Virus record (IMG/VR): IMGVR_UViG_3300021171_000007
Span: 15,612-79,611 of that record
Reading direction: 5' to 3' (one strand)
DNA length: 64,000 bases
Source: a virus
The translations under genes and the position numbers were made by a program. How positions within the stretch are numbered: position 1 is the stretch's first letter; the number at the start of each line of letters is the position of its first letter. The notes under the pieces were generated by a model. The model worked only from the letters and a program-made list of their open reading frames with translations. It made no database searches and was not told where the DNA came from. Below, piece by piece: positions 12,858-51,511 of this stretch.

Positions 12858-13024
12858 TTAGATGCGCCCAGTGCAAGAAAGAGTTTGCTCCAAAATTTCC
12901 ACAACATAGATTTTGTTCAAAAGACTGTGGCACAAGATTCCATAGATACGCACGAATGATGAAACGCGATCGTAAATGGATTTTGATTAATGGGCCTAGA
13001 TCTGTTCAATCTGATTCTACGTGA
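12854..13024 (+). CDS. Small treble-clef Zn-finger protein
   Basis: CAQC...FCSKDC. Confidence 0.6.
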   Translation: MIRCAQCKKEFAPKFPQHRFCSKDCGTRFHRYARMMKRDRKWILINGPRSVQSDST

Positions 13025-13474
13025 ACGGATTGTAACTCATTATGATTCCACAGTGGGGGGTTGTAGAAATCAAGATGAGTGAAAATTTGATGCTAGTCCG
13101 GTGACGGTCACCACCAGTGGGTCGCGTGAAACAGGTAAAACAGAAGATCGACCCCGACCTTCGGCTGGCCAGAAAATCGACAGAGAAGGGCAAGAGATAG
13201 GGATAGGGTCTAGCGTTTTAGGCTATGTGCATAGCGGACGCATGTCCGAGGCCGCCTGTCAGCCTCCTAATGCGATTTAAACGCATATCGCGGACTAGGG
13301 CATAACGGACGCGAGAAACGAAACATTCGCGAACATTACAAAATGTTAATGTGTTCGCAATGTTTTGTAATGTTGCAAACGTCGTTTACGTGTATTGTTC
13401 CCTTTGCACCGCGCTTTTGCGGTGCGGGCGGACGCTACGTGCGCCGCTCTTGTCTAGCAAAAAGGACTAAACAA

Positions 13475-13972
13475 ATGTCGAACGAAAAGCCCGCAAAGGT
13501 TGCGGACGTTCTCGCGCAAGTTAGCGCGGATAATGCGGAAGTGCGCGCTAGCGTGCTTGCGCTAGTGCAGGCTATGCCGCAAGCGATTGCGGACGCGGTT
13601 AAGCAGGCGTTGCCTGTCCCGACCGTGCGCGCGCCGCGAACCGCTCGCGTTGCGGTGCAGATGTCTCCTGCGGACGCGGACGCCGCAATGTGCGGTTTTA
13701 ACAAGAAAGGTCCGCGCCGCGATTTCTTTCTTGCTGTGCGCGAATTGCCGAGCGGCACATATTCGCTTGCGGAAACGTTTCCGGGCGTTTCGCTTGCGGA
13801 GGCGGGCGTTGTTTATCGTCGCCTTAGCGGACAACGCACGGGCGGACGCGTTACGGAAAGCTTTTTCGAGCGGTTAGGCTTCGAAATCGCAATCGTTAAC
13901 GAAGTGCGCGGGAAGGCCGAAATCGGCATTACGCGTTACACGGACGCGAACAAGACGGGCGAAACCGCCTAA
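13475..13972 (+). CDS. Orphan protein in a GC-rich, YCA/TGR-free island (candidate immediate-early gene)
   Basis: AAGGA SD, ATG 13475, own terminator; no TCA, CCA, TGA or TGG anywhere in the gene. Confidence 0.8.
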   Translation: MSNEKPAKVADVLAQVSADNAEVRASVLALVQAMPQAIADAVKQALPVPTVRAPRTARVAVQMSPADADAAMCGFNKKGPRRDFFLAVRELPSGTYSLAETFPGVSLAEAGVVYRRLSGQRTGGRVTESFFERLGFEIAIVNEVRGKAEIGITRYTDANKTGETA

Positions 13973-13981
13973 CGCGCAATC

Positions 13982-14010
13982 GAGCGGACGCGACAAGCGT
14001 CCGCTCTTTT
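13982..14010 (+). terminator. Intrinsic terminator
   Basis: GAGCGGACGC-gacaa-GCGTCCGCTC-TTTT. Confidence 0.8.
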
Positions 14011-14135
14011 CTTGCCCTCTAACTTCAGGACCAACAAAACCATGTTTATCATCATCGCACATCGTGGCCTCAACTGGCGCTGCTTCCGTGGCCCCAAGCG
14101 GACGTACTTCCTCTGGATCCACGAAGGAAATTGAA

Positions 14136-14269: not shown

Positions 14270-14293
14270 AATGGGGCGCAAGCCCCATTTTTT
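14270..14293 (+). terminator. Intrinsic terminator
   Basis: AATGGGGC-gcaa-GCCCCATT-TTTT. Confidence 0.85.
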
Positions 14294-14612
14294 CATGTCC
14301 AGTTCGTTCATCCCATGAATTGAATCAATCTCATGAATTGAGTTTGGTGATGATGATATCATGACATTCATCCCATGAATTGAATATAGATCATAATTCA
14401 TTCATCATGGTCATTTTCATTCATTGGCTGGTAACTTCATGAGTGCCATTGGCTGATGGATGCGCACCAACGTGGATTGATGATGGTGACTTCATAGCAA
14501 TCATTGATTGATGGTTGCGCCCAGATCATGGGATGATACCAATCAACTACCATTACCACTCACCATTGACTGAATCATTACTGATGACTTACCATTGATT
14601 CATGGAGCGCCC
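14293..14612. repeat. Non-coding patch saturated with TCA/CCA/TGA/TGG
   Basis: 12 and 14 such triplets in the two 60-nt lines counted; 19-nt direct repeat at 14307-25 and 14367-85. Confidence 0.75.
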
Positions 14613-14614
14613 AG

Positions 14615-14870
14615 GGACTGTTACCAGTCCTGTTAGTCCTGTTATTTTTCATATAAAATAGGACAAAGAAAGTGCAACGATTACAAGGACTTACGGCGAC
14701 CAGTCCTGTTAGTCCTGTTTGTCCTATTGGTATTTCCATATGCGAGGCGTCGTTTTGCTACCTCTTCCCGACCACTGACCGGACAGCCTCCATGGCCGGC
14801 CTAACCCCTTGTAATCGTTAAGGAATTTCTGTCCTCCTTGTGGTTTTCAGAAAACAGGACAGGACAGAAC
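14615..14870. repeat. Iteron-like repeats, candidate replication origin
   Basis: Tandem GTCCTGTT at 14627-43 and 14703-19, inverted AACAGGACAGGAC at 14853-65, and a 13-bp inverted repeat AACGATTACAAGG/CCTTGTAATCGTT; lies just downstream of the helicase. Confidence 0.6.
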
Positions 14871-14903: not shown

Positions 14904-16388
14904 TCAAGCATCTGGCTTATACAAACTGAAATCAAAATCAGTATTGCCGCGTAAAACTGACCATTGACCATCTTCTGTTGACCATTGAACCTTACCACCC
15001 AACTTACTTTCCAATGATCTTCTGACATCGGGACATAATGGAACTTCATATCCATTGCGTCTATTATCACGACTGTCTCTAATCTTGATATTCTCAACTA
15101 CCATATCAGGTATCAAATCTGCTAATTGGCGACCAAATTTTCTTTCTGATAACTGGTGGCGCTTCCCAGCTGGAGAATGATTATAGTCATTCAATAGCAG
15201 AGCTTTGATTACTTGCACTTTGCCATCCATCAATTCACCATAAGGCATTTCTTTGGAGTCTACAATACTATATAGCCATTCTTGGACTCCATTCATACTC
15301 TGTTGTTTCTGGAATATTAATTCTTCAGTAACAGGAGCTATTCTGAGATCAATATCATATTTATGATTGAGGAAATAATGCATGAGCGCGGCATTGCCGC
15401 CATTTTTAAACCAATTGTCAAGTTGGGCAAAGTATTTAGTATCACGTCTCTTATCTTCTGATGCATGAAGTGCGAATATGCGCCTAGCTTTGAATCCAGC
15501 GCTGACTAGCCATTCTGGATTACCAGTTATAAATAAATGAAGATGATTTGGAACTTCGTAAACTGGCACATATTTATCATTAATAGGTAATGTGGGACCA
15601 GATATGATATCTTTTAATAATGATTCATCTTTCTTACTACCAGCCCAAACTGCCTCTTCCAAATGGAGTAATATACAGTTCTTCAATTGCCCGTTATGAT
15701 CGCCAAATATGTATGCTGGATTTGATGTTTTAAATGTATATGGGCGCATCAATTCAGATAATTTCTCCACAAAGAATGATTTGCCTACACCCTCATCTCC
15801 ACGTATTACTACGGCTATGGCTGGTTTCAAATGAGGCTCTTGGAACATTTGGGAAATGAGTGCAATTAGATAATTGAAATTGTCTACATTTCCACAACAA
15901 ATGATATTATTCATTAAATCTAAGAATGGTATGACATCGCCCTCTTTTGATTCAATTCTATATCCTTTCCATAAATTATATTTATCATTTCTATTACCTA
16001 AATATGATGGATCGAAATCAAATCCGTATTTATAATGGCGACGTTCTGAACTGGCGAACCATACATCCGTAATTGGCACATATTTTGGATCACCACCTTC
16101 GGTTGGCATTATCATAATACGTCTATCTGAATAACCAGCAACCAAATCTTTCTTATCCATTATTTCTAATGTGCCATCTGGATTCTCTCTGACTACTTTG
16201 AATCGCCCATTTAAATATATTGTAAAATGATCTTCATTTAATTCTAATATGGCATCTTTCTTTGGATCGCCAGTTCTGGTATATTCTCGTCTGGGCGCAC
16301 CATGTTGATTTTGTTGATATCTTGGATCCTCAGTAAGTTTCTTAATACGTTCCAAATCTGGATATAGGTCGTCATCATCGTCAGCCAT
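14904..16388 (-). CDS. SF3 (D5/NrS-1-type, DUF5906-like) helicase without a primase domain
   Basis: GDEGVGKS Walker A, LHLEEA Walker B, FITGN motif C, ARRIF arginine finger. Confidence 0.85.
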   Translation of the reverse strand: MADDDDDLYPDLERIKKLTEDPRYQQNQHGAPRREYTRTGDPKKDAILELNEDHFTIYLNGRFKVVRENPDGTLEIMDKKDLVAGYSDRRIMIMPTEGGDPKYVPITDVWFASSERRHYKYGFDFDPSYLGNRNDKYNLWKGYRIESKEGDVIPFLDLMNNIICCGNVDNFNYLIALISQMFQEPHLKPAIAVVIRGDEGVGKSFFVEKLSELMRPYTFKTSNPAYIFGDHNGQLKNCILLHLEEAVWAGSKKDESLLKDIISGPTLPINDKYVPVYEVPNHLHLFITGNPEWLVSAGFKARRIFALHASEDKRRDTKYFAQLDNWFKNGGNAALMHYFLNHKYDIDLRIAPVTEELIFQKQQSMNGVQEWLYSIVDSKEMPYGELMDGKVQVIKALLLNDYNHSPAGKRHQLSERKFGRQLADLIPDMVVENIKIRDSRDNRRNGYEVPLCPDVRRSLESKLGGKVQWSTEDGQWSVLRGNTDFDFSLYKPDA

Positions 16389-18119: not shown

Positions 18120-19151
18120 ATGTCATTGCTAATGTCACTAATACAAAACGGCTCAAATCAAGAAGATCCCAGGACAAATCTTCTTGAGTACACTGCTGGT
18201 ACCATCGCTAAGCATATTGATGCGCCAGCGCACTACCTGGTTGGATTAGCTCTATGGGCGCTACATACCCATGTGTATTCCACCTATAGCAAGACTCCAA
18301 GATTAGCTATCTTGAGCCCAGTTCCTAACTGTGGCAAGAGTACAGTTTTGGAGATACTAGCTGCAATGGCTTGGAATCCTAAACGAGTAATAGACCCAAC
18401 TGAAGCCGCTCTATTTCGTTTGGCAAGCAATCATACAATGCTGCTAGATGAAGTAGATAACATGTCAATATCAAGAGGCATGAAGTCTGTCTTAAATGAA
18501 GGAGACAGATTGGGTGGTAGTGTTATAAGAACTGGAAAGGACGGTGAAGTTATATCCTATCCAGTTTTTGCTCCTCTTGCACTTGCTGGTATTGGTAGGT
18601 TGCCAGCAACTCTTATGACTCGGTCAATAGTTATAAGACTCCATCGCTCAGATAAAGCAATGGATAGATTCTCAGCAAGAGAGCAGCACTTTGCACCACA
18701 TTTCTATAATTGGGGTGATCAGGTAGTTCTTAATTCTGATCCACAAATGCCGCCTCAGTTAGTAGGTCGTGACGCAGATAAATGGAGATCGCTCGTAGCT
18801 ATTGGAGACTCGTTTGGTCGAGGCGAGATAGCGAGAGAGGTGGCGCTCAAGTTCGTAACTGAGAGCGTTAATCCAGATGTCAAGGAGCTAATACTGCGTG
18901 ATACACAGAGAGTGTTCAATAGAGCTAAAGTCACTAAGATCTCTGTGAAGAGAATGTACGAGAAGCTTATTGAGGACAAAGAAGGTGAACACGAAGTAGA
19001 TTATGACGGCCAAAAAATAACAAAAAGAAAAGTTGGAGACACATTACGTGATTTCCAAATATACAGTCGTATCGAAAGGCCAGAAAAAGGCGAGCCAGTT
19101 AGGTATTGGCTCAGAGACGATTTTGAAGAAATGTGGAAAAGGTATGCCTAG
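18120..19151 (+). CDS. DUF3631-type P-loop ATPase/helicase-like replication protein
   Basis: PRLAILSPVPNCGKST, TEAALFR, LLDEVD, LALAGIG and TRSIVIRL; GAGGAG SD. Confidence 0.75.
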   Translation: MSLLMSLIQNGSNQEDPRTNLLEYTAGTIAKHIDAPAHYLVGLALWALHTHVYSTYSKTPRLAILSPVPNCGKSTVLEILAAMAWNPKRVIDPTEAALFRLASNHTMLLDEVDNMSISRGMKSVLNEGDRLGGSVIRTGKDGEVISYPVFAPLALAGIGRLPATLMTRSIVIRLHRSDKAMDRFSAREQHFAPHFYNWGDQVVLNSDPQMPPQLVGRDADKWRSLVAIGDSFGRGEIAREVALKFVTESVNPDVKELILRDTQRVFNRAKVTKISVKRMYEKLIEDKEGEHEVDYDGQKITKRKVGDTLRDFQIYSRIERPEKGEPVRYWLRDDFEEMWKRYA

Positions 19152-19153
19152 CA

Positions 19154-19180
19154 CTACGTAACTACGTTACAGCGTTACAG
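19154..19180. repeat. GTAAC/GTTAC repeats downstream of DUF3631 gene
   Basis: CTACGTAACTACGTTACAGCGTTACAG. Confidence 0.6.
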
Positions 19181-19366
19181 TGAGTCCCAATAAAGATGGG
19201 TGCGCCTCATTTTATCGAGTTATTTCAGCTTATGACAATCAATCGCCAATCAGTGAATGAATAATGGCTGAATTATGTAGTGAATTCAATATTTGAAGTT
19301 TCATGGGTCAGTGATTATCATGGTATTTTCTCTGTATGTTCCCTTTTTACCCCCTATTTGTTCCCC

Positions 19367-20203: not shown

Positions 20204-20596
20204 ATGAAAGTGTTCAATAAAGAAATGCATGACAATCTATTAGCTCTGGGATATGAGCATACTCGATATGTCTCCAAAAAATATCGAACCAGATTCGATA
20301 TGTATGATCACCCAGATAACGACGACTGGTTTGAGATAGACGAGAAAGGACATATTGATCCAGCTGATCTTTGCGGCTTTACGGAAGGATCTACCAGAGG
20401 GCACCAAATATATGAGGATTGGAAAGCAGCAGGGAAACAAGGTTTTCTGAACTTCAAAAATAAACCATTACCGACAGAATTGGTAATACACAGAATAGGG
20501 TGTGATATTAAGGATAGATTAGTCAAAAAGAACATGCCATTCGAGTTAGAACTCACGGAAGAAAAATTTCAACTGAAAAGGCTTACTGAGCATTAA
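20204..20596 (+). CDS. Hypothetical protein
   Basis: AGGAG SD; stop codon abuts ribozyme 1; N-terminus resembles the ORF ending at 30688 (LHTFLLKKGYRY...RYDRYDH). Confidence 0.7.
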   Translation: MKVFNKEMHDNLLALGYEHTRYVSKKYRTRFDMYDHPDNDDWFEIDEKGHIDPADLCGFTEGSTRGHQIYEDWKAAGKQGFLNFKNKPLPTELVIHRIGCDIKDRLVKKNMPFELELTEEKFQLKRLTEH

Positions 20597-20659
20597 GACC
20601 GAAACTGGGGCGCCACAAAAGCTCTCCAGTCCTAGCGTAAGGCGCTAGCTGACGAGGTC
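20597..20659 (+). ncRNA. Hammerhead ribozyme type II, copy 1 (cleavage after C20631)
   Basis: GACC-GAAA-CTGG..CCAG-TC-CTAGCG taagg CGCTAG-CTGACGA-GGTC. Confidence 0.93.
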
Positions 20660-20678
20660 AGTAACAGGAGTTGTACTA

Positions 20679-21095
20679 ATGAAACTAGATCTTAATATTC
20701 ACATAAACTCTTGGTTGCATCGTAATGACGATGTAATCGACCCTATTCTCATTCAATTGAAGGGGAATAGCGAACGGATGATTGTAGATACTTCTGAGTA
20801 TATTTTTATCAGTTTCGAGTATCCTCTTTCACAAGGACTCGATCTGCCGTTTAATGGCAAGAAGCCTTGGAGATTGTGCGATCTTATTGATGCGATCTGC
20901 CAGGGATATGTGAAGATTTACGACGAGGAAGATGAGACCAGAACGCTTCCTGCTCAGTCCCCATTAGATTCTGTTCTGGTTAATCGTCCTAAGACTGACG
21001 GCAAGCATGGCATTTGGGGACACGATCTCAATGACCTTTATATTGAAGGCGTACATAAAGAAGAAGGAATTTGGCATCTCGATATTGGATCATAA
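20679..21095 (+). CDS. Hypothetical protein
   Basis: AGGAG SD after ribozyme; GKHGIWGHDLNDLYIEG. Confidence 0.75.
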   Translation: MKLDLNIHINSWLHRNDDVIDPILIQLKGNSERMIVDTSEYIFISFEYPLSQGLDLPFNGKKPWRLCDLIDAICQGYVKIYDEEDETRTLPAQSPLDSVLVNRPKTDGKHGIWGHDLNDLYIEGVHKEEGIWHLDIGS

Positions 21096-21107
21096 TGGGA
21101 GGGAGCA

Positions 21108-21326
21108 ATGGGATATAGAATGAGGCGTTGTGACAAATGTAAGGATTTGATAAACGGAAATGATGTTGCATTCAATATACATTTTAAATGGTGCGGACAT
21201 AATACTGGACTAAACTATATGAGTGAGAAAGATCTTAAAGTGCTGGAAGCTAAATTGGCGCAACCAAGGAAAGATTCACCAGAAGCGGCTTGGAATAAAA
21301 TGCACAATTGGTCAGGAAAACAGTAG
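21108..21326 (+). CDS. Small Zn-finger-like protein
   Basis: CDKC...HFKWC; TAG overlaps ribozyme 2. Confidence 0.65.
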   Translation: MGYRMRRCDKCKDLINGNDVAFNIHFKWCGHNTGLNYMSEKDLKVLEAKLAQPRKDSPEAAWNKMHNWSGKQ

Positions 21327-21386
21327 ACCGAAACTGGAGTGCCACAAGCTCTCCAGTCGCAGCGTTCCTCGCTGCCTGACGAGGTC
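21326..21386 (+). ncRNA. Hammerhead ribozyme type II, copy 2 (cleavage after C21358)
   Basis: GACC-GAAA-CTGGAG..CTCCAG-TC-GCAGCG ttcct CGCTGC-CTGACGA-GGTC. Confidence 0.95.
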
Positions 21387-21404
21387 AGTAATAGGAGAAT
21401 GAAA

Positions 21405-21629
21405 ATGGCACGAGTAATTGTTCAAATTAAAACTGTCACATATTTAAATGGAGCTACTACTGAAATCGAAGATGAGTTACTTCGTGAATTTACAGTAGTA
21501 ACAAAAGGTCGTGGTGCAGTGAACATGCATTCAATGGCATCAATTATACAAGGTACGATCGAATCTGCTGAGGAAAGATTTAGGGTTGAAAAGACCAAAA
21601 CATATTCAACAAATCGTAATATTGGTTAA
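21405..21629 (+). CDS. Hypothetical protein
   Basis: AGGAG at 21393-97; start 21405 (or 21399). Confidence 0.65.
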   Translation: MARVIVQIKTVTYLNGATTEIEDELLREFTVVTKGRGAVNMHSMASIIQGTIESAEERFRVEKTKTYSTNRNIG

Positions 21630-21632
21630 TTA

Positions 21633-21691
21633 GACCGAAACTGGCAGGTGCGATCTGCCAGTCGCAGCGTTTCTCGCTGCCTGACGAGGTC
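21633..21691 (+). ncRNA. Hammerhead ribozyme type II, copy 3 (cleavage after C21663)
   Basis: GACC-GAAA-CTGGCAG..CTGCCAG-TC-GCAGCG tttct CGCTGC-CTGACGA-GGTC. Confidence 0.95.
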
Positions 21692-21710
21692 AGTAACCAG
21701 GAGAACTAAA

Positions 21711-21992
21711 ATGAAACTTCCTCCAATAGAAGATGTTAAACTTACTGTCATAGGGCCGGATGATCCGCTTCCAGCGGGCTTCGAGCCCATCACCATTGTC
21801 GTCAAGGACGTATCATGTCCAAAATGCGGTGCTGGAGAGATGCACCCGGATGGCAAGCATGTCCTAATTCGTGGATTCAAAGTCTGCGATGCAAAAGGAC
21901 ATTGGTGGAGTCAATGTCTTGTCTGTGCCGGTGGGTACGACGCAGATTTGAACCCCGTTAAGGAGTTTGATCGCAACAAGGGATGGTTCTAA
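21711..21992 (+). CDS. Zn-ribbon protein
   Basis: CPKC...CLVC; AGGAG SD. Confidence 0.7.
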   Translation: MKLPPIEDVKLTVIGPDDPLPAGFEPITIVVKDVSCPKCGAGEMHPDGKHVLIRGFKVCDAKGHWWSQCLVCAGGYDADLNPVKEFDRNKGWF

Positions 21993-22231
21993 TGCCAACC
22001 ATAACAGTTGAACTCGAAGTAGCAATGGCTCAAGAGCTTGCCTCAGTAGCGCGTGGCAAAGCTAAGGGCATCGACTGGGTTCTGGAGAATAAACCTCCAG
22101 TTCCCAAGAAGGCGTTGGAGCTTGACGAGCGAGCCAAAATTCTCGTTCAAGCTGCCACACTAATCGAGACTGCTCTTCACCAAAGAGCACTCGGCAACGT
22201 CGTAAAGATGGGAGATAAAAATGTCCGATAA
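21983..22231 (+). CDS. Hypothetical protein
   Basis: Coupled ORF; true start may be ATG 21992. Confidence 0.6.
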   Translation: MVLMPTITVELEVAMAQELASVARGKAKGIDWVLENKPPVPKKALELDERAKILVQAATLIETALHQRALGNVVKMGDKNVR

Positions 22232-22520
22232 GGACCCATGGATCGTCTGCCCCGTGTGTGATGGGGAAGGCAAGACAGTCAATCCTAATATTGATGCGAA
22301 CGGATTGACTCGCGAAGACTTCGATGAAGACCCAGACTTCAGAGAAGATTATATGAGCGGCATGTATGATATTACGTGCGCCGCTTGTTCTGGGAAGCGC
22401 GTTGTGAAACAAGCACGCATCACGGAATTAGAGCAGAATGCTGAAGATCGTCGGCTTGCTGCTCGTGAAAACGGCGACTATGAATCATACAGTGTCGCAG
22501 GCGATTGGAGATACGGATGA
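22221..22520 (+). CDS. DnaJ-type Zn-finger protein
   Basis: CPVCDGEG...CAACSGKR. Confidence 0.7.
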   Translation: MSDKDPWIVCPVCDGEGKTVNPNIDANGLTREDFDEDPDFREDYMSGMYDITCAACSGKRVVKQARITELEQNAEDRRLAARENGDYESYSVAGDWRYG

Positions 22521-22759
22521 AACTGGATAAACAACGCGAAAACCGAGCCAAGTACCCTTTCATTTGTGCTTGGGGCGCTAGACTTGGTTCTTTTCAATAT
22601 TACATCGACGGTGAAGTTGCAAGAGCCATCGAAGATGGCGCTCCTGACCGTGCCATTTATAAGAGTGGCGACGGCAAGTGGCGCACCATCGATGACTGCC
22701 AAAACGAAATGGCCAAAGAAGAATGTATAGCTTGGGTGGCCAAAAACTTTAAGAAATAG
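22505..22759 (+). CDS. Hypothetical protein
   Basis: TAG overlaps ribozyme 4; true start probably ATG 22517. Confidence 0.65.
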   Translation: MEIRMKLDKQRENRAKYPFICAWGARLGSFQYYIDGEVARAIEDGAPDRAIYKSGDGKWRTIDDCQNEMAKEECIAWVAKNFKK

Positions 22760-22817
22760 ACCGAAACTGGTAGGTGCGATCTACCAGTCACAGCGTAAGG
22801 CGCTGTCTGACGAGGTC
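22759..22817 (+). ncRNA. Hammerhead ribozyme type II, copy 4 (cleavage after C22789)
   Basis: GACC-GAAA-CTGGTAG..CTACCAG-TC-ACAGCG taagg CGCTGT-CTGACGA-GGTC. Confidence 0.95.
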
Positions 22818-22835
22818 AGTAATAGGAGTTGTATA

Positions 22836-23330
22836 ATGAAACAGGTTTCTGATTACTACAAGAAGTTCCTTCATAACGACGGAATTTCCAAAGAAATGTA
22901 TAATGAAAACATCGAGCTTATTTACGATGTTGACGCAGAAATGTGGTATGCTTTTAATTACATATCACCAACGCATTACTACGAAGAATTTGAAGATCTC
23001 ATCGACGCGCTCGATTCAAATTCTGTTCTTTGGTGGCACGACTTGTCCGGCGACAATGATAAAGTTACGGACAGGAAGCAGATATTGGTAATTAAATTCC
23101 TCGATGACGAGGAAGACGAATGGACCATGTTCTACCATCACGGTATAATGGACGGCAAAGATGTAACAACATCTTGGGCTGCTCCATCTTCAGGAGAATT
23201 TCCTACTCCTGAATGCATTGTACGTCAGAAAGTATCTGTGGTGCAATGTGCTGTTGATGCCGCACAATTTATTTTTGATCAACCACATATAAATAAGCCA
23301 CGTAATCCATCACTTCGTTACGTCAAATAG
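22836..23330 (+). CDS. Acidic hypothetical protein
   Basis: Single gene bracketed by ribozymes 4 and 5; D/E- and aromatic-rich. Confidence 0.75.
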   Translation: MKQVSDYYKKFLHNDGISKEMYNENIELIYDVDAEMWYAFNYISPTHYYEEFEDLIDALDSNSVLWWHDLSGDNDKVTDRKQILVIKFLDDEEDEWTMFYHHGIMDGKDVTTSWAAPSSGEFPTPECIVRQKVSVVQCAVDAAQFIFDQPHINKPRNPSLRYVK

Positions 23331-23396
23331 ATCGAAACTATGGGGCGCCACAGGAGCGTTCCATAGTCGCAGCGTAACTCGCTGCCTGACGAGATC
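23330..23396 (+). ncRNA. Hammerhead ribozyme type II, copy 5 (cleavage after C23368)
   Basis: GATC-GAAA-CTATGG..CCATAG-TC-GCAGCG taact CGCTGC-CTGACGA-GATC; compensatory change in stem II. Confidence 0.95.
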
Positions 23397-23414
23397 AGAA
23401 AAGGAGTAGGTAGC

Positions 23415-23624
23415 ATGACGAAAGTAGATCCAAAATCTGCCTTTGAAGGGGACACCATTACTCCCGTTGAGAAGCCTAAGTCAAGGGCGCAGAAGGTTGC
23501 TGAGTACAGAGTAGCTCATCGAGCAGAGTACGAGCGAACTTGCCATGATGCACAATGCACTTGCACGCCAACTCGCGCGCAGATGTTGATTATGGATAAC
23601 TACCAAAGCCCACCAATCGACTAA
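23415..23624 (+). CDS. Hypothetical protein
   Basis: AGGAG SD after ribozyme 5. Confidence 0.65.
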   Translation: MTKVDPKSAFEGDTITPVEKPKSRAQKVAEYRVAHRAEYERTCHDAQCTCTPTRAQMLIMDNYQSPPID

Positions 23625-23861
23625 TTATAAACCTTACCATTGAACTTTGGAGCGCAGCAATGCGCTCCACTTTTAGGCAATTTTGCCACTACCAGGATAA
23701 GTAAAATGTCAAGAATAAAATCAGCTTTACGAGGTGTTGTCATAGTACCGGCTTGGGTCGTTATGCTGGCAACAGCCAGTTTTATCGTCGGAACTGGTAT
23801 CTGGACTACACTGCTGATGAGCCGCTGTTCGATCTAACCAACCTAAACCAGGAGAATAAAA

Positions 23862-24179
23862 ATGACACCTCAAGAGAGCAGGAAGAATTGGCTCGATAAG
23901 CAGCCAGTGCGCGAGAATCTTACTACTGAGCACGGATGGCCGATGCGAAATGATCATATTCTGCATCTGTTCGGTTTGCCATCAAATCATCCTATTCCGC
24001 CGGATTATGAAGATATCAAACTAATCGGTAATGTTTGGGTTCGGATTTATCCACGCGGACAGGCGCACATTGGTAGACGTGTTGTGGCAGAATGTCCAAA
24101 ATGTGAAAGATTGGTTTGTGCTGGCCATTTAATGCAACATATGAAGGTACATAATGATCGAGGAGCAAGCAAAATTTGA
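23862..24179 (+). CDS. C2H2 Zn-finger protein
   Basis: CPKC...HLMQHMKVH. Confidence 0.65.
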   Translation: MTPQESRKNWLDKQPVRENLTTEHGWPMRNDHILHLFGLPSNHPIPPDYEDIKLIGNVWVRIYPRGQAHIGRRVVAECPKCERLVCAGHLMQHMKVHNDRGASKI

Positions 24180-24337
24180 GAGATGGAAGTCCAGAGTAGA
24201 CGTTTACCTGGAGCAGATGGTAAAGAAACTAAGTGGAGATTTTAAATATGATTATCTCCACGACTTCCAAAATAAGGTTCCACCCAGCATAACAGCTACT
24301 CGCGTTGTAAAACGCCAGTACAGAAATGGAGTAGAAA

Positions 24338-24586
24338 ATGGTAGCAACAGCATACGGAGTCAAGGCAAATGGCAAAAAACTCCTCGATGAATATCGAGGA
24401 GACCGCATATATGGAGATTGTTTCATCATTCTTAAGGATGGAAAGGAAACATATGAGGTTGTTCTTTCCACTATCGGTGATATGTGCAATTGCAAAGCTG
24501 GCGAACATGGTCATCAATGCAAACATGTTAAGATGGCACTAGAATATCATCACAAAATTAACGAAGCGATTGAGGCAGTCAAATAG
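24338..24586 (+). CDS. SWIM Zn-finger protein
   Basis: CNC...CKH; TAG overlaps ribozyme 6. Confidence 0.7.
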   Translation: MVATAYGVKANGKKLLDEYRGDRIYGDCFIILKDGKETYEVVLSTIGDMCNCKAGEHGHQCKHVKMALEYHHKINEAIEAVK

Positions 24587-24649
24587 ACCGAAACTTGGGG
24601 CGCCACAAGGCGTTCCAAGTCGTGCTGTAAGGCAGCACCTGACGAGGTC
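24586..24649 (+). ncRNA. Hammerhead ribozyme type II, copy 6 (cleavage after C24621)
   Basis: GACC-GAAA-CTTGG..CCAAG-TC-GTGCTG taagg CAGCAC-CTGACGA-GGTC. Confidence 0.95.
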
Positions 24650-24673
24650 AGAAATGCCAAGGAGGTAGCACGT

Positions 24674-24808
24674 ATGGGTGACCCAGAAGAGCATAAAGAC
24701 GAAGAGTTGAGCCTTGAGAAAGAGACTCAAAAAGAGCCCAAAGAAGAGGCAAAAGAGCCAGTAAAAGAAGGTGATCCTCAACCAGAGGAAGATCCCAAAG
24801 TAGCGTAA
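24674..24808 (+). CDS. Very small E/K/P-rich protein
   Basis: AAGGAGG SD; MGDPEEHKDEELSLEK...; below the ORF-track cutoff. Confidence 0.55.
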   Translation: MGDPEEHKDEELSLEKETQKEPKEEAKEPVKEGDPQPEEDPKVA

Positions 24809-25477: not shown

Positions 25478-26491
25478 ATGTACCTTATGGACAGCATCGT
25501 AGAAACAGTTCATGAAGCTAAGAAACGAAAATTGATACAACATCCTGTCATACAAATCTTCCCAATACTAGAAGAGAAATTGAAAGGATGTCCTCGGTTC
25601 TTGTTTGACGATACTGCGATCAGAACGGCTGTGGAGCTTACTCTGGGGCGCCCCAAGGTGCTTAGGGAAGCCATGGCACACCTTACCATTCCATATCCTA
25701 AGATATGGGTAGAATGGCCAGAAGCAGGAAGAGAAAAATTGAGACAGACGTTCTCAATAGACTCTTACGAGTATCCTAATCGACCACTACCAACTCGTCT
25801 TGGCTTTCTGCTAGAGACAGATGAGTCTGGTAGGAAAGGTCAGGTAACTTGGGTTTGGAGTAATCATTTCATTAAGAAAGGTGAACCTCCGAATGTTGGT
25901 CCAATATCTGCGTTCTTCGATTTGGATTTCAACTACAGCAAGTTGGTAAGTCCGACTTTTGTCAATAGTTTCTTGGATGCTAACTTAGCGCATATTTGGA
26001 AGGACAACAAAATCCAATTGGAGGCGCTCCTTAGCATCTGGGACACAGCTTACCATCAACCGTCCGAATGGGGTGCAAGATTTCTGAGAATTCCTTCTCC
26101 AGATTCTCCGTATGGAAGCGTAGATTCTCGCGTAGCCAATTTCTATGCGGACGTTTATGGCGAATACATTATGGTTTGGTCATGCTTGTTATTGTTGACA
26201 TCTTCCAGAAAGATAGTTGAATTGGAAGAAGTTGATATGTCTCAACTAAATAAAATACGCAGAAGAATGGATAAACCTCAAAGGTTAGACCATACCACAG
26301 TTAGTCTCTATATCAATAGAGATAATGTGATACACAAACAAGGTGTACCACTAGGATTTGAACGAAAGAGTCCGCGTATCCATATGGTTGGGTCATATCT
26401 TAATAGACGTGGCGATAAACATTGGATAGTCCAGCCTTTCTGGCGCGGCGAAGGTGAGGTTATCAGTCGTCATGTAAAAGTGAAAGGATAG
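25478..26491 (+). CDS. Hypothetical phage protein
   Basis: 337 aa; C-terminal RKSPRIHMV...PFWRG. Confidence 0.75.
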   Translation: MYLMDSIVETVHEAKKRKLIQHPVIQIFPILEEKLKGCPRFLFDDTAIRTAVELTLGRPKVLREAMAHLTIPYPKIWVEWPEAGREKLRQTFSIDSYEYPNRPLPTRLGFLLETDESGRKGQVTWVWSNHFIKKGEPPNVGPISAFFDLDFNYSKLVSPTFVNSFLDANLAHIWKDNKIQLEALLSIWDTAYHQPSEWGARFLRIPSPDSPYGSVDSRVANFYADVYGEYIMVWSCLLLLTSSRKIVELEEVDMSQLNKIRRRMDKPQRLDHTTVSLYINRDNVIHKQGVPLGFERKSPRIHMVGSYLNRRGDKHWIVQPFWRGEGEVISRHVKVKG

Positions 26492-38316: not shown

Positions 38317-38763
38317 ATGAGCCTTATTGAACACGATGTAGGTGAACACGCAACCCGAGCAATTGAAGAGAGACTTCTTGGTGTAGAAAGACCAAGATTA
38401 TTGAGAACACTTTCGACCAAACCAGAACCGGTGGTTGAGGAGCCACCGGCACCGGAACCTGAATCTATGCCAACACCTGTTAAAATAGACCATACATTAA
38501 TTCCGATCGACGCTCTTGAAGAAGTGTCACGAGCACTTATGTATGGTAAAGAGAAACATGGCGCTTGGGGATGGATAGAACATCCAAAGAGCTATACTGA
38601 GCTTCTCGCGAAAGCGCAGCGCCACATTTTTGAGTTTCAACGCGGTGTGACAATTGATCCAGCAACTCAATTGTCACATATAGCATGTGCGATCTGTGAT
38701 CTCATGTTTCTGCAATCCAATATTATAAAGGGTCGTGGAACAGATGACAGGTTCAAAGATTAA
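38317..38763 (+). CDS. dATP/dGTP diphosphohydrolase-like (DUF5664) protein
   Basis: LMYGKEKHGAWGW...RHI...SHIACAICDLMFL. Confidence 0.75.
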   Translation: MSLIEHDVGEHATRAIEERLLGVERPRLLRTLSTKPEPVVEEPPAPEPESMPTPVKIDHTLIPIDALEEVSRALMYGKEKHGAWGWIEHPKSYTELLAKAQRHIFEFQRGVTIDPATQLSHIACAICDLMFLQSNIIKGRGTDDRFKD

Positions 38764-40015: not shown

Positions 40016-40915
40016 ATGTATGGAAGCGGCGTAATGACTGATATCCATATTATTGGAGCAGGTATGTCTGGCTTGTTGGCAGCTAATATGCTGCGGCGCC
40101 ACAGAGTAACTGTGTTTGAAAAACAAGAGCAACTTCCAAATAACCATCATGCAGTCTTACGTTTTAGAACTCCAGAAATAGGCAATATTTTGGGTATTCC
40201 TTTTAAAAAAGTTAATATGATTAAAACTTACGAGCCATATATGAATGTGGTAGCAGATAGTTTGTCATATTCCAGGAAATGCACTGGTAAATATCTATCA
40301 GATAGATCCATTATTACTGGAACTATTCAATCTGAGCGTTACATTGCGCCTCAAAATCTAGTAGAACAAATGGCAGAAAATGTTAATGTCTGCTATGGCA
40401 CAGGATTTGATCCATTAAAAAACAAAGCAAACATACCAGTTAAAGCTATTTCTACGTTGCCAATGCCTGTGCTAATGGCATTATTAGAATACGAACATGA
40501 TATTAATTTTGATAGTATCCCAGGTTGGGTCTTCACAGGCAGAATATTGGATTGCGATGCCTATGTCTCAATTTTATACCCAGGTCCACAAGTATATAGT
40601 CGCGCCACTATTACGGGAGATCAAATTATTGTGGAATTCCCCAACCTTGGAGAAATTCCTGATATTGTTGATCTTGCTAATGTTTATAACTCCCTTGGTT
40701 TATATGATTGTGTGGTACTTGATGCCGAATTTAAGAGACAGCCATATTTCAAAATAACAGAGATAGATGAAGCAGAACGCAAGGCGTTTATGCGTTGGGC
40801 AACTGTCACATATGGTATCTATTCTCTGGGGCGCTACGCAACCTGGAGACCAAAACTGCTACTTGACGACCTAATCCACGATGTCCGCAAAATAGAAGGA
40901 TGGATCTGCAAATGA
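40016..40915 (+). CDS. FAD/NAD(P)-binding oxidoreductase
   Basis: IIGAGMSGL, VFEK and C-terminal LGRYATW; true start probably ATG 40034. Confidence 0.8.
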   Translation: MYGSGVMTDIHIIGAGMSGLLAANMLRRHRVTVFEKQEQLPNNHHAVLRFRTPEIGNILGIPFKKVNMIKTYEPYMNVVADSLSYSRKCTGKYLSDRSIITGTIQSERYIAPQNLVEQMAENVNVCYGTGFDPLKNKANIPVKAISTLPMPVLMALLEYEHDINFDSIPGWVFTGRILDCDAYVSILYPGPQVYSRATITGDQIIVEFPNLGEIPDIVDLANVYNSLGLYDCVVLDAEFKRQPYFKITEIDEAERKAFMRWATVTYGIYSLGRYATWRPKLLLDDLIHDVRKIEGWICK

Positions 40916-41403: not shown

Positions 41404-42138
41404 ATGAAAGTAACGCTTATTGACGGAACAGGATTTGGTTCTCCAAATCCAAGTCGCTATGCTGCAAATATGATTGCATACACTAGATCAACAAGACTCA
41501 ATATGTCTCCAGGATTACTTGCTGAAATCCAAGCAAAAGAAGATTTTGAAGTTCTTAAAGAAGTGCAATTGGCAGCAGGTACAATTCCATCTAGCTGGGA
41601 GTTCGTTCAATTCACATTTGTTATAGAGAAAGTGACACGAGCATTTACCCACCAATTGGTGCGCACCAGACACGCCTCATATGCTCAACAAGCTATGCGT
41701 ATTGTTGAGATGACAGATTTTGAATACGCTAGAGGTCCGTCTGTTGGAGAACAAGGATTATACGATGATACTATGGCAATGATTGCCAAAAATTATAAGA
41801 TATTAATTGATTCAGGTGCAACGACTGAGGATGCGAGAGGCATATTGCCAACGAATATTCTCACCAATATTTGTATGCATATCAACATGCGTAACTTTGT
41901 TAATTTGACAAGGAAACGCGTCAGTAGACGTGTGCAAAATGAGTACAGAAATGTACTTGATGCAGCAATAATTGAAGTCGAGAAAACATATCCATGGTTC
42001 TATCTTTTCTATAAAAATGATGCATTTAAGGCCAGAAAAGATCTGCAAGATATGATCTATGAAAATAAGCACCTGCTACCTGAAGAAAAGGTAGACATGG
42101 TTAAGAAATTGGATATTATAGGAGGGCAAGAGTTATGA
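41404..42138 (+). CDS. thyX: Divergent FAD-dependent thymidylate synthase
   Basis: SSWEF, TRAFTHQLVRTRHASYAQQAMR and EDARGILP. Confidence 0.8.
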   Translation: MKVTLIDGTGFGSPNPSRYAANMIAYTRSTRLNMSPGLLAEIQAKEDFEVLKEVQLAAGTIPSSWEFVQFTFVIEKVTRAFTHQLVRTRHASYAQQAMRIVEMTDFEYARGPSVGEQGLYDDTMAMIAKNYKILIDSGATTEDARGILPTNILTNICMHINMRNFVNLTRKRVSRRVQNEYRNVLDAAIIEVEKTYPWFYLFYKNDAFKARKDLQDMIYENKHLLPEEKVDMVKKLDIIGGQEL

Positions 42139-42310: not shown

Positions 42311-42757
42311 ATGATAGTTGTTGTTGATCTCGATCATACTGTGTCTGACGCGTTTTGGCGCGACAGTATGATAGGTGTCAATCCTTGGGATGAATATTAC
42401 GAAAACGCTAAGTACGATAAGCCATTCAAGAACGTAGCTAATTTAATCAATTCTCTTTCTGCTATGAACTACGAGATTATAGCATTTACTGGAAGACCAG
42501 AAAAATTTAGAACTCTAACAGTCAGTTGGTTAGTTCGTAATAGAATTGACATAGATACTATCTTGATGCGCCCAGACGAGGATTATACCAAAAATAGCGA
42601 GTTGAAACTTAGATTAATCAAAGAACATTTTAAGGATAGATTTTATCAAATACATTTTATTATTGACGATAATGAGGAATCAGTATTAGAATTTTACAAA
42701 TTGGGGATACCTACACTTCAAATAAGAAACGTAAGACCAAAGGATCTCTTCGCGTGA
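42311..42757 (+). CDS. HAD phosphatase (PNKP phosphatase-like)
   Basis: DLDHT, FTGR, LMRP and IIDD. Confidence 0.8.
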   Translation: MIVVVDLDHTVSDAFWRDSMIGVNPWDEYYENAKYDKPFKNVANLINSLSAMNYEIIAFTGRPEKFRTLTVSWLVRNRIDIDTILMRPDEDYTKNSELKLRLIKEHFKDRFYQIHFIIDDNEESVLEFYKLGIPTLQIRNVRPKDLFA

Positions 42758-47247: not shown

Positions 47248-48983
47248 TAAGAGTAATCACAGAAGCAAACTATTTGATGATTCACGGGCCGTTCCCGCTT
47301 GAGTTCTTAAGAATACTTTCACGTCTGTCTGGACCAAAAATACGCTATTCATCTAAATCCATTAGATATGATATGTCTAATTGGAATGTTAAGGTTCTCA
47401 AAGAGAGCGGATTTGAAATCGAATGGGAAGATTCTACTGAAGAATTAAAACAAATAGATGAAATTCAATCTATTAAAGAGATGATGGATGATATTAAACC
47501 TATCAAATTCAATTATCATCCGAAGTACGAGCTTAAAGATCATCAAATAGAAGGACTTAATCTCAGCACATATCGCAAAGCGTTTGCTTGGTTCTTAGAG
47601 ATGGGACTAGGCAAGACAGCCTTGGCTATTGCCAATTTCTGTATTCTATTTATGGAAAAGAAAATTGATGCTGTTCTTGTTTTGTCACCAAAAGGCGTGC
47701 ATAAACAATGGATAGCAGAAGAAATTCCAAAGCATATAGATCCATCTATTCCTTTAAATATGACTCTATGGAATCGTCATGGTAAAGGGAAAGGTGCTTA
47801 TGAATCTACTGATTTAAGACAGCAAGGTTTACTCAACATATTTTCTTTGAATATAGACTCAGTTAATACTAAGGATGGCTACTTTGCCATTACTCAATTT
47901 TTCCGTTTATTTGGTGCACAATTTGATGTACGATATACCAAGAAAGGAAATAGAATATATGAAAATATAAGGCGTAAAGCTAAGATAATGATGATTATTG
48001 ACGAGTCTCATCAAATAGGAAATTATACATCTGGTAGAACACAAGAAACTATAGATTTTGGCAAATTAGTTGAGTATCGTAGAATATTAACAGGAACTCC
48101 TATTGCCACTAGCCTACTTAATATTTGGTGTCAATTTATGTTTCTCGATCCTAAGATTATTGGATATAACTATGTGACTCCATTTAAAGCACATTTCTGT
48201 GAGCTTGGAGGATATTCTGGACAAGAGGTTGTTGGCAGCAAAAATGTTGAAGAGTTCTATAGTATCATTGCGCCACATTGCTTTAGAAAAACCAAAAAGG
48301 AATGTCTCGATCTTCCTGATAAGATTTACGCCAAACGAACTTATATGCTAGGCAATGAGACACGTTGGCATTATGAAAATATCAAACATGCATTTATGAC
48401 AGAATTGACATCAGGTAACATAGTCGCGCCCAAGAATGCTTTGGCCGCTCTGGTGCGCCTCCAGCAGATCTGCTCTGGATTCTTACCTGACGATGATGAG
48501 AATGAGACTGCAAGTAAGAGAGATTATGAAATCTTCTCTTACGAACGTGCCCAAATTGCTTTAGACATGGTAAAGCAAATCGAGGGGCAGGTCATAATCT
48601 GGGCGCGCTTCATCCCAGATATCAAATGTATTCAACATACATTTAAAAAGGATTTTGGTAAAGACATTGCATTAATGAGCGGAGTAGAACAATTTAAGAA
48701 TGGCAAACAAAAGATATTATTATCAAATCAAGCTAAGGGAATTGGAGGTAATCTGCAAGAGTCAGGTTGTACGTCTATGATATATTACAACAACTCATAT
48801 AATCTAATCCATAGATTGCAATCAGAAGATCGTGTCCATAGAATGGGTATGCGTGGTGCGCTAACTATTTGGGACATAGTTGCTGATAAGACAGTTGACA
48901 AAGGCATTGCTGAGAACTTAAAAGCCAAGAAAGATTTAGCACAATTCGCATTAGATGACATAAGGCAGTTAATTGAAGATTGA
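47244..48983 (+). CDS. SNF2-like SF2 helicase
   Basis: EMGLGKT, IIDESH, LTGTP and QSEDRVHRMG. Confidence 0.9.
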   Translation: MIRVITEANYLMIHGPFPLEFLRILSRLSGPKIRYSSKSIRYDMSNWNVKVLKESGFEIEWEDSTEELKQIDEIQSIKEMMDDIKPIKFNYHPKYELKDHQIEGLNLSTYRKAFAWFLEMGLGKTALAIANFCILFMEKKIDAVLVLSPKGVHKQWIAEEIPKHIDPSIPLNMTLWNRHGKGKGAYESTDLRQQGLLNIFSLNIDSVNTKDGYFAITQFFRLFGAQFDVRYTKKGNRIYENIRRKAKIMMIIDESHQIGNYTSGRTQETIDFGKLVEYRRILTGTPIATSLLNIWCQFMFLDPKIIGYNYVTPFKAHFCELGGYSGQEVVGSKNVEEFYSIIAPHCFRKTKKECLDLPDKIYAKRTYMLGNETRWHYENIKHAFMTELTSGNIVAPKNALAALVRLQQICSGFLPDDDENETASKRDYEIFSYERAQIALDMVKQIEGQVIIWARFIPDIKCIQHTFKKDFGKDIALMSGVEQFKNGKQKILLSNQAKGIGGNLQESGCTSMIYYNNSYNLIHRLQSEDRVHRMGMRGALTIWDIVADKTVDKGIAENLKAKKDLAQFALDDIRQLIED

Positions 48984-49035
48984 TAATTACATGCTTGATC
49001 AGCTAAATAAAAAGCAAGTTTATTTCTTTTTTCGC

Positions 49036-49064
49036 TTGCAATGCGAGCGGAAATGTGCTACTCT
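49036..49064 (+). promoter_or_regulatory. Sigma70-type promoter
   Basis: TTGCAA-17 nt (ending TGTGC)-TACTCT. Confidence 0.7.
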
Positions 49065-49104
49065 GTACCAGGCGCTAAATCCAGCGCCAGCAAGGAGAGC
49101 ACGT

Positions 49105-49929
49105 ATGTCAAAACATTACCAGGTGCGTTATACGGTTGGGGATAAGACTGTAGCGCATGAGCATTATACCGAGAAAGGCGCCAAGATTGATGCCAAGGCA
49201 CTTTCCAAAGCTGTCGGCAACGCCGTTATTGGCGAGATCGAAACCAACGACGAAGATCAATCGCAGGCGCTCGTGCGAGTTTGGGAGTTTTCTGGCGGAG
49301 AAAGCGGCAAACCCATCAAGAAGGATGGGGCGCCACCGTCTGCTGTTGAGATCCTCAAGACGGCAGATGAGACGAGGCTTCAGGAAACCGTGAAGGAGAA
49401 GAAGCCCAAGGCTCCGAAGATGACTGACGAGGAGAAGATCGCCAAAATCGCTGCTGAGGCGCAATCTCGGCTTGATGCAATCGCTGCTGGAACCTACGTT
49501 CTTCCCACTCGCGGTCGCAAGGCAGCCACCGACGAAACGGGCGAACCCAAGAAGAAGAAGGCAGAAGTCAATAAGGTCGATAAGATCGTGGAGACTTTGG
49601 GTTGCTCGGAACACGCGGCCGAAATTCTCAACGAAATTGGAACGACGGCGGTTTCCCGTCGCGCCAAGGTTGCAGCGTTCATTATCGACGGCAATGGACC
49701 TGTAGCTGCATCAGCTATCGTCGAGAAGCTCAACGCAGATCCTGACGAGGAAGACATCACGATCAAGAAGGTCGTGTCTGCTGCCAATTTCGATAACTAT
49801 CTCTTCTCCAAGCACGAGCAGCCTTGGAGGTTTACGATCAAGGCCAAGGGCGAGGATACGATCTTCAACTTCGTTCCGGTCAAGATCGAATACCAGGGCG
49901 AACCTGAAGAGCAGCAAGCTGCTGAGTAA
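49105..49929 (+). CDS. K/E/A-rich protein with host-like codons, possibly DNA-binding
   Basis: AAGGAG SD; own promoter and terminator; ends QQAAE. Confidence 0.75.
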   Translation: MSKHYQVRYTVGDKTVAHEHYTEKGAKIDAKALSKAVGNAVIGEIETNDEDQSQALVRVWEFSGGESGKPIKKDGAPPSAVEILKTADETRLQETVKEKKPKAPKMTDEEKIAKIAAEAQSRLDAIAAGTYVLPTRGRKAATDETGEPKKKKAEVNKVDKIVETLGCSEHAAEILNEIGTTAVSRRAKVAAFIIDGNGPVAASAIVEKLNADPDEEDITIKKVVSAANFDNYLFSKHEQPWRFTIKAKGEDTIFNFVPVKIEYQGEPEEQQAAE

Positions 49930-50297: not shown

Positions 50298-50355
50298 CAA
50301 TTACCTGAGAAGCTCTGTGGAAATCCGCGGTCGCCGGAGCCGAAGTGGCCTATTC

Positions 50356-51415: not shown

Positions 51416-51511
51416 TAACTTTCCGTAATGTTTCATGAATAATTGGGAGTGCGTGTACAGCTCTCAGTTATGCGGCGTACAGTGCGTCCACCCAGATCTG
51501 GAGAGCAACAA

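Follow-up and report, generated by a model that had tools for sequence, protein, structure and literature searches.

An evenly spaced three-base-pair word, absent from one gene, in the genome of an uncultured soil phage

The p6 protein of phi29 is an abundant, early, histone-like protein, which is bound at regular intervals over all of the viral DNA, starting from particular nucleation regions, and affects both the initiation of replication and the use of promoters; to our knowledge, neither a p6-free gene nor a genome-wide tiling by a word has been described for it. Short words that are densely marked for protection are found in the cases of Mom, of DpdA 7-deazaguanine, of partial thymidine hypermodification and of the chlorella-virus methylases and nickases, and we know of no modification system for which a selected even spacing or an exempt gene has been described. 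Furthermore, in the cases of MazF (ACA) and MqsR (GCU), one gene has lost all copies of a 3-nt word and so stays functional while all other transcripts are hit. Finally, phages T5 and BF23 escape restriction-modification, CRISPR and Ssp systems if their first-step-transfer region is free of targets, and a repeat-rich non-coding tract follows that region (PMC10644984).

The DNA analysed here, called the window throughout, is a stretch of 64,000 nt from an uncultured soil phage (bases 15612-79611 of a 79,611-bp IMG/VR record, 100% complete according to CheckV). A short word, YCA with its complement TGR (TCA, CCA, TGA and TGG), is tiled along this genome and yet purged from one gene, so that something must read the word on duplex DNA. 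Literature searches gave no description of such a pattern, and we know of no described restriction, modification, CRISPR, nucleoid-protein or primase system which predicts both an even spacing and a single exempt gene. The features involved, in window positions, are the following.

1 to 64000, no strand: genome-wide tiling, with one YCA/TGR site per 13 bp outside the island
13005 to 13124, no strand: left-flank patch rich in sites (16 per 120 nt; mean 9.2), also conserved among relatives
13260 to 14024, no strand: YCA/TGR-free island, GC 56%, CpG O/E 1.85
13332 to 13374, plus strand: putative promoter/operator with a perfect 12-nt inverted repeat, AACATTACAAAA / TTTTGTAATGTT
13406 to 13425, plus strand: GC-rich leader hairpin, GCACCGC-loop-GCGGTGC, the stem conserved and the loop variable among relatives
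13475 to 13972, plus strand: gene (open reading frame) for a 165-aa Trp-free protein, with a predicted helix at residues 9-45 and a winged-helix-like part at 64-156
13982 to 14016, plus strand: intrinsic terminator, a 10-bp stem GAGCGGACGC/GCGTCCGCTC followed by a T-tract
14293 to 14612, no strand: YCA/TGR-saturated non-coding tract, with 27 and 26 sites per 120 nt
14626 to 14730, no strand: site-free iterons, GTCCTGTT repeats flanking AACAGGAC
14904 to 16388, minus strand: divergent DUF5906 / VapE-like primase-helicase gene, which bounds the control region

All four triplets are absent from both strands of the island, that is, from 765 nt by site count, and the void is delimited by a TCA at 13259 and another at 14025 (a gap of 766 nt), with further sites following at 14031 and 14040. 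The next largest gap in the window is 107 nt, and elsewhere in it the sites number 77 per kb. An earlier note, made from the letters of this stretch, had reported that the triplets were missing from 13262 to 14024, with one TCA alone between 13172 and 14024 and about 48 sites expected at uniform frequency. The counts agree: the void in fact starts at 13260, the lone TCA is the one at 13259, and the expectation is correct (763 x 4/64). The same holds for the description of the island as an upstream region, a Trp-less gene and its terminator, with the triplets back directly afterwards.

The island is CpG-rich, with GCG and CGC about threefold above expectation, and its GC content compares with 41.8% for the genome. 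These values, far from those of the genome, would suit a foreign GC-rich acquisition without function, the odd composition of which happens to miss the triplets; such an accident has a negligible probability and was rejected as an explanation. Shuffles preserving the dinucleotides of the island contained 24.4 +/- 3.6 sites (minimum 13 in 3000 shuffles), synonymous-codon permutation of the island gene left 15.3 sites (minimum 5 in 20000 permutations), and 27.8 sites would be expected in this gene under the codon usage of the phage. The 213-nt non-coding leader, for which 8.2 sites are expected, was empty in none of 3000 shuffles. Codon and dinucleotide bias cannot account for the void, the means of the shuffles being 15-28 sites and no count falling below 5. 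Moreover, an accident would explain neither the constraint on the amino-acid sequences of the gene family nor the fact that the identical word set independently governs the remaining genome.

Conservation among relatives weighs against it as well. Homologues of the 165-aa protein exist at 60-74% identity; their DNA comes from ten soil loci, three of them viral and seven metagenomic, and the void is present in all these loci (0-4 sites per about 690 nt). Seven non-identical relatives retain it despite about 180 substitutions; when the window is aligned with L002, 179 of 682 island positions differ and the two sequences hold 0 and 1 sites, while random substitution at this divergence would make 17-26. 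In a first-order Markov test with the seven relatives pooled, the O/E in the island was 0.01 for CCA/TGG (1 observed vs 78 expected) and 0.18 for TCA/TGA, every other triplet pair lying between 0.56 and 1.6. Judging from these alignments, the void is kept up by selection. An exhaustive profile search added three remote family members at 29-36% identity, and viral contigs scanned with one protein at a time gave no match to the remote homologues P0010, P0011 and P0013. The forced minimum is zero sites in 12 of 12 family proteins, the members at 29-36% identity included, whereas among background chunks of 150 aa (mean 6.6-6.8 sites) only 1 of 92 and 0 of 231 reach zero; since no family member is obliged to contain a site, the prohibition of the word dates back to the origin of the family. 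None of the bacterial genomes and none of the cultured phages searched encodes the island protein, and a near-identity DNA search of phage records returned no match to the island.

Outside the island, the gap CV of YCA/TGR is 0.586, the lowest among 496 word sets made of two reverse-complement pairs each (mean of the sets 1.04, sd 0.13; the runner-up has 0.77). When synonymous codons are permuted within genes, the CV becomes 0.784 +/- 0.008, which places the observed value at a z of about -21, and under the same permutation gaps of more than 30 nt number 111 vs 416 expected and those of more than 40 nt 19 vs 167; the number of sites is 5% above the null. The spacing z is -1 to -2 for single words, -4 to -7 for pairs and -21 for the four-word union. 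With TGA and TGG as the start, the best two added words among 1891 pairs are TCA and CCA, and the reverse search agrees, while the spacing gets worse with any word added or dropped or with a flanking base fixed. Since an unbiased search returns all four words and no flanks, the word is exactly 3 bp long and, since both orientations count alike, the result points to a reader of duplex DNA. The reading of YCA/TGR as one strand-symmetric word on the duplex phage DNA is thus supported. The earlier note had proposed that these triplets were modified or protein-bound, and the part of this proposal by which they are read as one word is supported by the even spacing; for modification, the analysis yielded no positive evidence. 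DNA bendability, hot spots of UV or oxidation damage, PAM avoidance, Chi-like sites and stop-codon recoding were also considered and set aside, for under none of them do the four words form one class, and the even spacing is left unexplained.

The symmetry of the word bears on two further readings, both of them very unlikely. The first places the selection on RNA: an endoribonuclease, encoded by the host as a toxin or by the phage for shut-off, would cut at the triplets and leave the island mRNA as the one survivor. MazF-type enzymes with 3-nt sites exist, one cut kills an mRNA, which would explain a near-absolute local purge, and the void coincides with a single transcription unit, which it spans from near the -35 region as far as the terminator. 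However, the MazF and MqsR cases concern the sense strand only, whereas the island is free on both strands and in non-transcribed upstream DNA, the void in this window beginning about 70 nt before the conserved promoter box. Unlike the sites of those toxins, the island word set is closed under reverse complement, which for a reader of RNA would be a 1-in-1891 coincidence; furthermore, the tiling is equal on genes of both orientations and the untranscribed promoter gaps are free.

The second, equally improbable, takes YCA as the template trinucleotide of a primase, with the saturated tract as an origin priming hot zone and the island left unprimed. Reading of one strand predicts independent orientations, but the union is more regular (ratio of CV to null 0.72) than each orientation alone (0.86-0.88); in addition, no use is known for priming every 13 nt, and nothing would explain a gene exempt from priming. 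That the densest tract abuts the DUF5906 primase-helicase gene would suit this reading, as would the fact that primases read 3-nt words, such as 5'-GTC-3' in the case of T7 (PMC2910064) and CCC-type words in that of Aquifex (PMC2532735).

The tiling is uniform across gene classes and strands, and 3-kb bins contain 196-296 sites each (215-240 in 21 of 26 bins). Pairs of sites are too few at 3-10 bp apart and too many at 13-21 bp. Over 62 kb of coding DNA, the largest gap is 43 nt, except for one mis-called ORF start, which is the single coding gap of at least 45 nt (89 expected). Outside the island, every gap of at least 50 nt is intergenic, has a length of 51-107 nt, comparable to the footprint of an RNA polymerase, and carries iterons or promoter-like elements (TGTGCTAnnnT extended -10 boxes and GTAATGTT boxes). 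The scarcity of closely spaced sites, a coverage limit near 40 bp and the footprint-sized promoter gaps fit steric occupancy by a bound protein better than a small chemical mark.

Such a mark is the main rival of a coat, and a rather unlikely one. A base in YCA/TGR would be modified by an unrecognised phage enzyme or by a host enzyme, the even spacing placing a shielded base in every protospacer- or nuclease-sized window; the island would be left unmarked, for the host RNA polymerase to read it from incoming DNA, and its product would then license the marked genome for expression or replication. The earlier note had put forward this idea, in which the gene would have to be expressed first. Sites are missing from just 1.1% of 32-bp windows (99% contain one), the uniformity over gene classes and strands is as expected of a property of virion DNA, and a near-absolute purge suits a deterministic mark. 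The -35 and -10 regions of promoters avoid the word too, although under the mark there is no reason for the free DNA to extend over 51-107 nt instead of the hexamers alone, nor does a small mark predict the short-range deficit. Three independent leaks in the coding sequences of relatives are all sense-strand TGR, which would suit a mark that does harm on the template strand only; this excess is not significant.

The search for enzymes bears on the same question. The complete genome contains no match to PF01702 (TGT/DpdA) at E<=1, none to PF01555, PF00145 or PF02086 (N6/N4, C5 and D12 methyltransferases) and, in the complete record, none at E<=1 to PF01507 (PAPS-reductase-like, of DndC/SspD type), for which 14 of 14 control genomes gave matches; hence none of the enzyme families that define the phage hypermodification systems is encoded here. 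Pfam scans of the other ORFs of the window of at least about 60 aa likewise gave no modification enzyme, and the families recognised among them by Pfam and PHROG belong to replication, nucleotide metabolism and virion structure only. Among the nucleotide-metabolism genes, a MazZ-N-like dGTP_diPhyd_N protein, ThyX, a HAD phosphatase, a NUDIX protein and an FAD/NAD-binding protein offer some hint in favour of a mark, and a modification enzyme may be present among the many unannotated ORFs. A 337-aa ORF (AcrVA2-like according to the ESM Atlas) and a 318-aa ORF (without a result there) were not retained as candidate readers. Targeting by Ssp phosphorothioation, which the earlier note had brought up for CCA, was not borne out: the Ssp/Dnd motif (CpsCA) comprises CCA alone, whereas here TCA/TGA belongs fully to the word set, weighs as much as CCA/TGG and is purged from the island too, and the phage is without a PAPS-reductase-like gene, although a host could encode such a system.

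The layout of the locus supports the view that the island is probably one self-contained transcription unit. Upstream of the gene lies a box, ACATTACAAAAnnTTAATG, which is invariant in the aligned relatives, and the region also carries TGTTN/GTAATGTT repeats, which are not TGR; the GTAATGTT box recurs at 7777 and 51425, inside other site-free intergenic gaps. The leader folds with a z of -3.7; behind its conserved hairpin come another hairpin, a run rich in T and, at 13462-13466, the ribosome-binding site AAGGA. The void ends 9 nt past the terminator. No Rfam family was found in or around the island, nor at gathering score anywhere in the window, in which tRNA genes were not found either.

About 300 nt downstream, with the island on one side and the divergent primase-helicase gene on the other, the saturated tract includes the two densest 120-nt windows of the 64 kb (at 14331-14586, with 27 and 26 sites, the mean being 9.2 and the sd 2.45). 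The tract consists of site-rich iterons with words such as YCATTGRYTGR, CATGAATTGA and TGATGATGA, and in L002, L003, L006 and L008 the densest tract occupies the identical position. From their arrangement, the site-free GTCCTGTT iterons appear to share with it one intergenic control or origin-like region. As with ParB and parS, the gene adjoins a cluster of presumed binding sites, from which binding could perhaps spread; nevertheless, there is no ParB homology here and, while ParB slides from a single site, spreading in this genome would depend on a cognate site every 13 bp.

The order of the locus, in which repeat-rich non-coding DNA (14293-14730) comes after a cassette devoid of sites, recalls the target-free first-step-transfer region of T5 and BF23 and the repeat tract behind it (PMC10644984). 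By analogy, the island would be a cassette which enters or is expressed first and lacks the target of a host 3-bp nuclease or nickase until its product neutralises the enzyme, the repeats acting as a stop of injection or expression. This is decidedly improbable. The region of T5 spans about 10 kb inside a terminal repeat, whereas the island measures 0.77 kb and is internal to the contig, 28.9 kb from the end of a linear record in which no terminal repeats were found. Moreover, T5 avoids ordinary restriction or CRISPR targets of 4-8 bp, and here a 3-bp word is tiled across the remaining genome; avoidance of an enzyme gives no reason to space its target evenly, the sites are in excess of the null rather than depleted, and a 3-bp cutter would destroy the host too.

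The island gene encodes the only one of the 82 phage proteins of at least 100 aa which can be encoded with zero sites. In the structural model, a long N-terminal helix (residues 9-45) is joined by a low-confidence linker to a C-terminal domain (residues 64-156), which reaches a pLDDT of 83 when modelled alone. Almost all structural matches of this domain are DNA-binding winged helices (Z 5.0-5.4, rmsd 2.9-4.0 A over 73-80 residues), the best being of the OmpR/PhoB type, followed by the winged helices of Fur, MarR, ScpB and RepE; the matches are mutually consistent, with middling scores, as in those of 1kgs_A (the top one; Z 5.4, rmsd 4.0 A, 78 residues aligned) and 8hml_B (Z 5.2, rmsd 2.9 A, 73 residues aligned). 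No Pfam family, Trans_reg_C included, and no PHROG was matched at E<=0.01, and the protein has no sequence relative in the PDB. On the strength of the model, the island product looks like a DNA-binding protein.

This protein is the only DNA-binding candidate tied to the word, and a coat exempting its own gene is therefore favoured. We infer that the reader is a protein, not a chemical mark, and that it is the island protein. That a coiled-coil and winged-helix protein from the island would coat the genome, its own gene being kept free of its sites, is a tentative reading, possible rather than probable. It can be extended, with similar reservations, to a viral 'chromatin code', by which the genome would be written, mostly via synonymous codons, for a dedicated reader to tile the DNA; the simplest such reader would perhaps be the island protein, with promoters, iterons and the gene of the reader as the word-free windows.

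According to this coat model, a factor reading YCA/TGR in either orientation would tile the whole phage chromosome, as a DNA-binding protein that takes up roughly 10-12 bp per site and so coats the DNA. The coiled-coil N-terminus would serve self-association and, through a flexible linker, would be connected to the winged-helix domain. With one site about every 13 bp, and neighbours almost never more than 40 bp apart, coverage would be continuous. Promoters and iterons, site-free over about the footprint of an RNA polymerase, would remain readable by other proteins, and the product could neither block the promoter of its own gene nor roadblock its transcription, the whole unit of the coat gene being site-free. 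The saturated tract beside the primase gene would be a high-affinity loading site and may form part of the origin. The purpose of the coat is presumably the shielding of DNA or the organisation of replication and transcription.

In favour of the coat we count the lack of any known modification enzyme among the encoded proteins, the position of the gene beside the densest cluster of sites, which is the usual layout of a DNA-binding protein and its loading site, and the fact that gene and spacing rule travel together. An abundant early phage protein distributed along the whole viral DNA would also be akin to p6 of phi29 and TF1 of SPO1. The likeness is partial: p6 reads a bendability pattern in a 24-bp repeat and not a 3-bp word, it binds along the genome, whereas here only a regular spacing of candidate sites is seen, and the island protein, which gave no Pfam or PHROG hit, does not resemble p6 or the HU-like TF1 in sequence.

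Several points speak against the coat. The fold matches behind it are middling (Z about 5), the net charge, only slightly positive, is unusual for an abundant coat protein, and winged helices usually read more than 3 bp. The other genes, late ones included, carry sites yet need to be transcribed, so the coat would be no hard roadblock. The near-absolute purge of the island, best seen in the ratio for CCA/TGG, implies a large cost per site, which fits an irreversible event, such as cleavage or a covalent mark, better than a coat. This tension, between site-bearing genes that are still transcribed and a nearly absolute purge of the island, is the main weakness of the model.

The evidence for a reader of duplex DNA applies equally if the reader is encoded elsewhere, in the phage or in the host, and the island protein is a controller, either an anti-coat or release factor or a regulator of the adjacent control region, the gene of which must stay expressible. 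The TGTTN/GTAATGTT repeats upstream could then be the real binding sites of the protein, direct repeats of this kind being typical targets of OmpR/PhoB-type winged helices. We regard this arrangement as unlikely, given that no other candidate reader was found and that the encodability of the family without sites, down to 29% identity, ties the island gene closely to the word.

If the coat or any such reader is real, selection on a 5-bit word of 3 bp has left its imprint on almost all synonymous sites of a virus of 80 kb and, in one protein family, on the amino-acid sequence as well. The identity of the reader would then reveal either a new way in which phages shield their genome or organise it like chromatin, or a new DNA mark that is dense and directed by sequence, and would supply a natural protein or enzyme with 3-bp specificity. 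The ranking of reverse-complement-closed word sets by gap CV, together with the search for void cassettes, can be used on any genome.

Its application to other phages separates relatives from controls. The gap CV of YCA/TGR is 0.589 in G006, 0.68 in G007, 0.61 in L013 and 0.65 in L014, in each case first among the 496 sets, compared with 0.83 in lambda (7.3% of 32-bp windows empty) and 0.83-0.84 in two complete phages of 88-90 kb with equal GC, which have only the DUF5906 primase in common with this one (11.5% empty). Every even-spaced genome covering the region (G000, G006, G007, G008 and L005-L009) carries the island gene, while four complete phages that share the primase only (CheckV 98-100%; two assayed in full and two as loci of 19-21 kb) lack both the gene and the spacing rule. 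The comparison is thus between one clade and unrelated controls and, because the phages without rule and gene share only the primase with the clade, the co-occurrence is weak evidence. For the same reason, a subtractive gene comparison with the non-tiled G001 and G003, which have the DUF5906 primase alone in common with this clade, was uninformative.

Two minor observations concern the coding sequence of the island. Besides the lack of Trp, each Met in the protein precedes a codon starting with C or T. Finally, GCGGAC(G) is over-represented, with 9 of its 17 genome copies inside the island; it was rejected as a motif, since the excess arises because Ala-Asp codon pairs are forced to GCG-GAC, and non-coding copies are not conserved. 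Where the window has GCG-GAC, L003 uses GCA-GAT for the same pair of residues.

Gaps free of the YCA/TGR words (TCA, CCA, TGA, TGG) hold promoter-like elements elsewhere in the window, in the form of candidate promoters with an extended -10 box, TGTGCTAnnnT, which lie inside such gaps at the following positions:

7816, plus strand
16912, plus strand
17995, plus strand
49054, plus strand

This motif occurs in 5 copies against 2.5 expected, a count that by itself does not reach significance. A second box, GTAATGTT, is enriched (9 copies against 2.5 expected) and is found at the island, the YCA/TGR-free stretch around the gene for the winged-helix-like protein, as well as at 51425 and where the early operon begins (7777). 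Moreover, other intergenic, site-free gaps contain clusters of iterons, probably either pac/ori elements or sites to which other regulators of the phage bind:

17863-17915, three copies of GTTACGCA, 3' of a gene resembling the Sf6-type small terminase
19134-19181, repeats of CGTTACAG
50346-50397, four copies of TTTACGC

In the unrelated complete phages which share only the DUF5906 primase with this genome (G001-G004, loci L015-L022, 11300-12200 in each locus), GCG, CGC, GCA and TGC are missing for 450-850 nt directly downstream of the primase gene; this stretch is AT-rich and probably origin-like, and the YCA/TGR signal is absent from it. As regards the phage's own 79.6-kb genome, the palindromes CGTACG, CTCGAG, CTGCAG and GCATGC do not occur at all, several further GC-rich 6-mers have just 1-3 copies each, and CATG is scarce (212 copies), a pattern that looks like ordinary restriction-site avoidance superimposed on the YCA/TGR rule.

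Several genes, three of them near that of a 148-aa protein matching PF18909, may together form a nucleotide-pool or base-replacement pathway:

38317-38763, plus strand, 148-aa protein, dATP/dGTP diphosphohydrolase N-terminal domain (E 3e-20), the match being limited to this domain and the MazG domain absent
40016-40915, FAD/NAD-binding protein
41404-42138, ThyX
42311-42757, PNKP-type HAD phosphatase

Rfam searches of the whole window at gathering score, and of 20400-24800 at E<=1, detected neither a hammerhead ribozyme nor a member of another family. Three further protein-coding ORFs are of note:

25478-26491, plus strand, conserved 337-aa ORF without Pfam match
48973-49929, plus strand, 318-aa ORF with a doubtful annotated start
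51443-52165, plus strand, 240-aa phage-encoded protein with a PEP-CTERM sorting motif at its C-terminus (E 1e-7)

For the 318-aa ORF the called start is probably wrong, since the protein in the ESM Atlas begins only at residue 45 and a site-free, promoter-like gap (48999-49068) falls within the first 100 nt or so of the ORF as called. The sorting motif of the 240-aa protein hints that the host has an exosortase system. Finally, the 337-aa ORF is similar to ESM Atlas clusters of AcrVA2-like proteins (score 0.97), and 15-29% of the members of the matching clusters carry the AcrVA2-like family.
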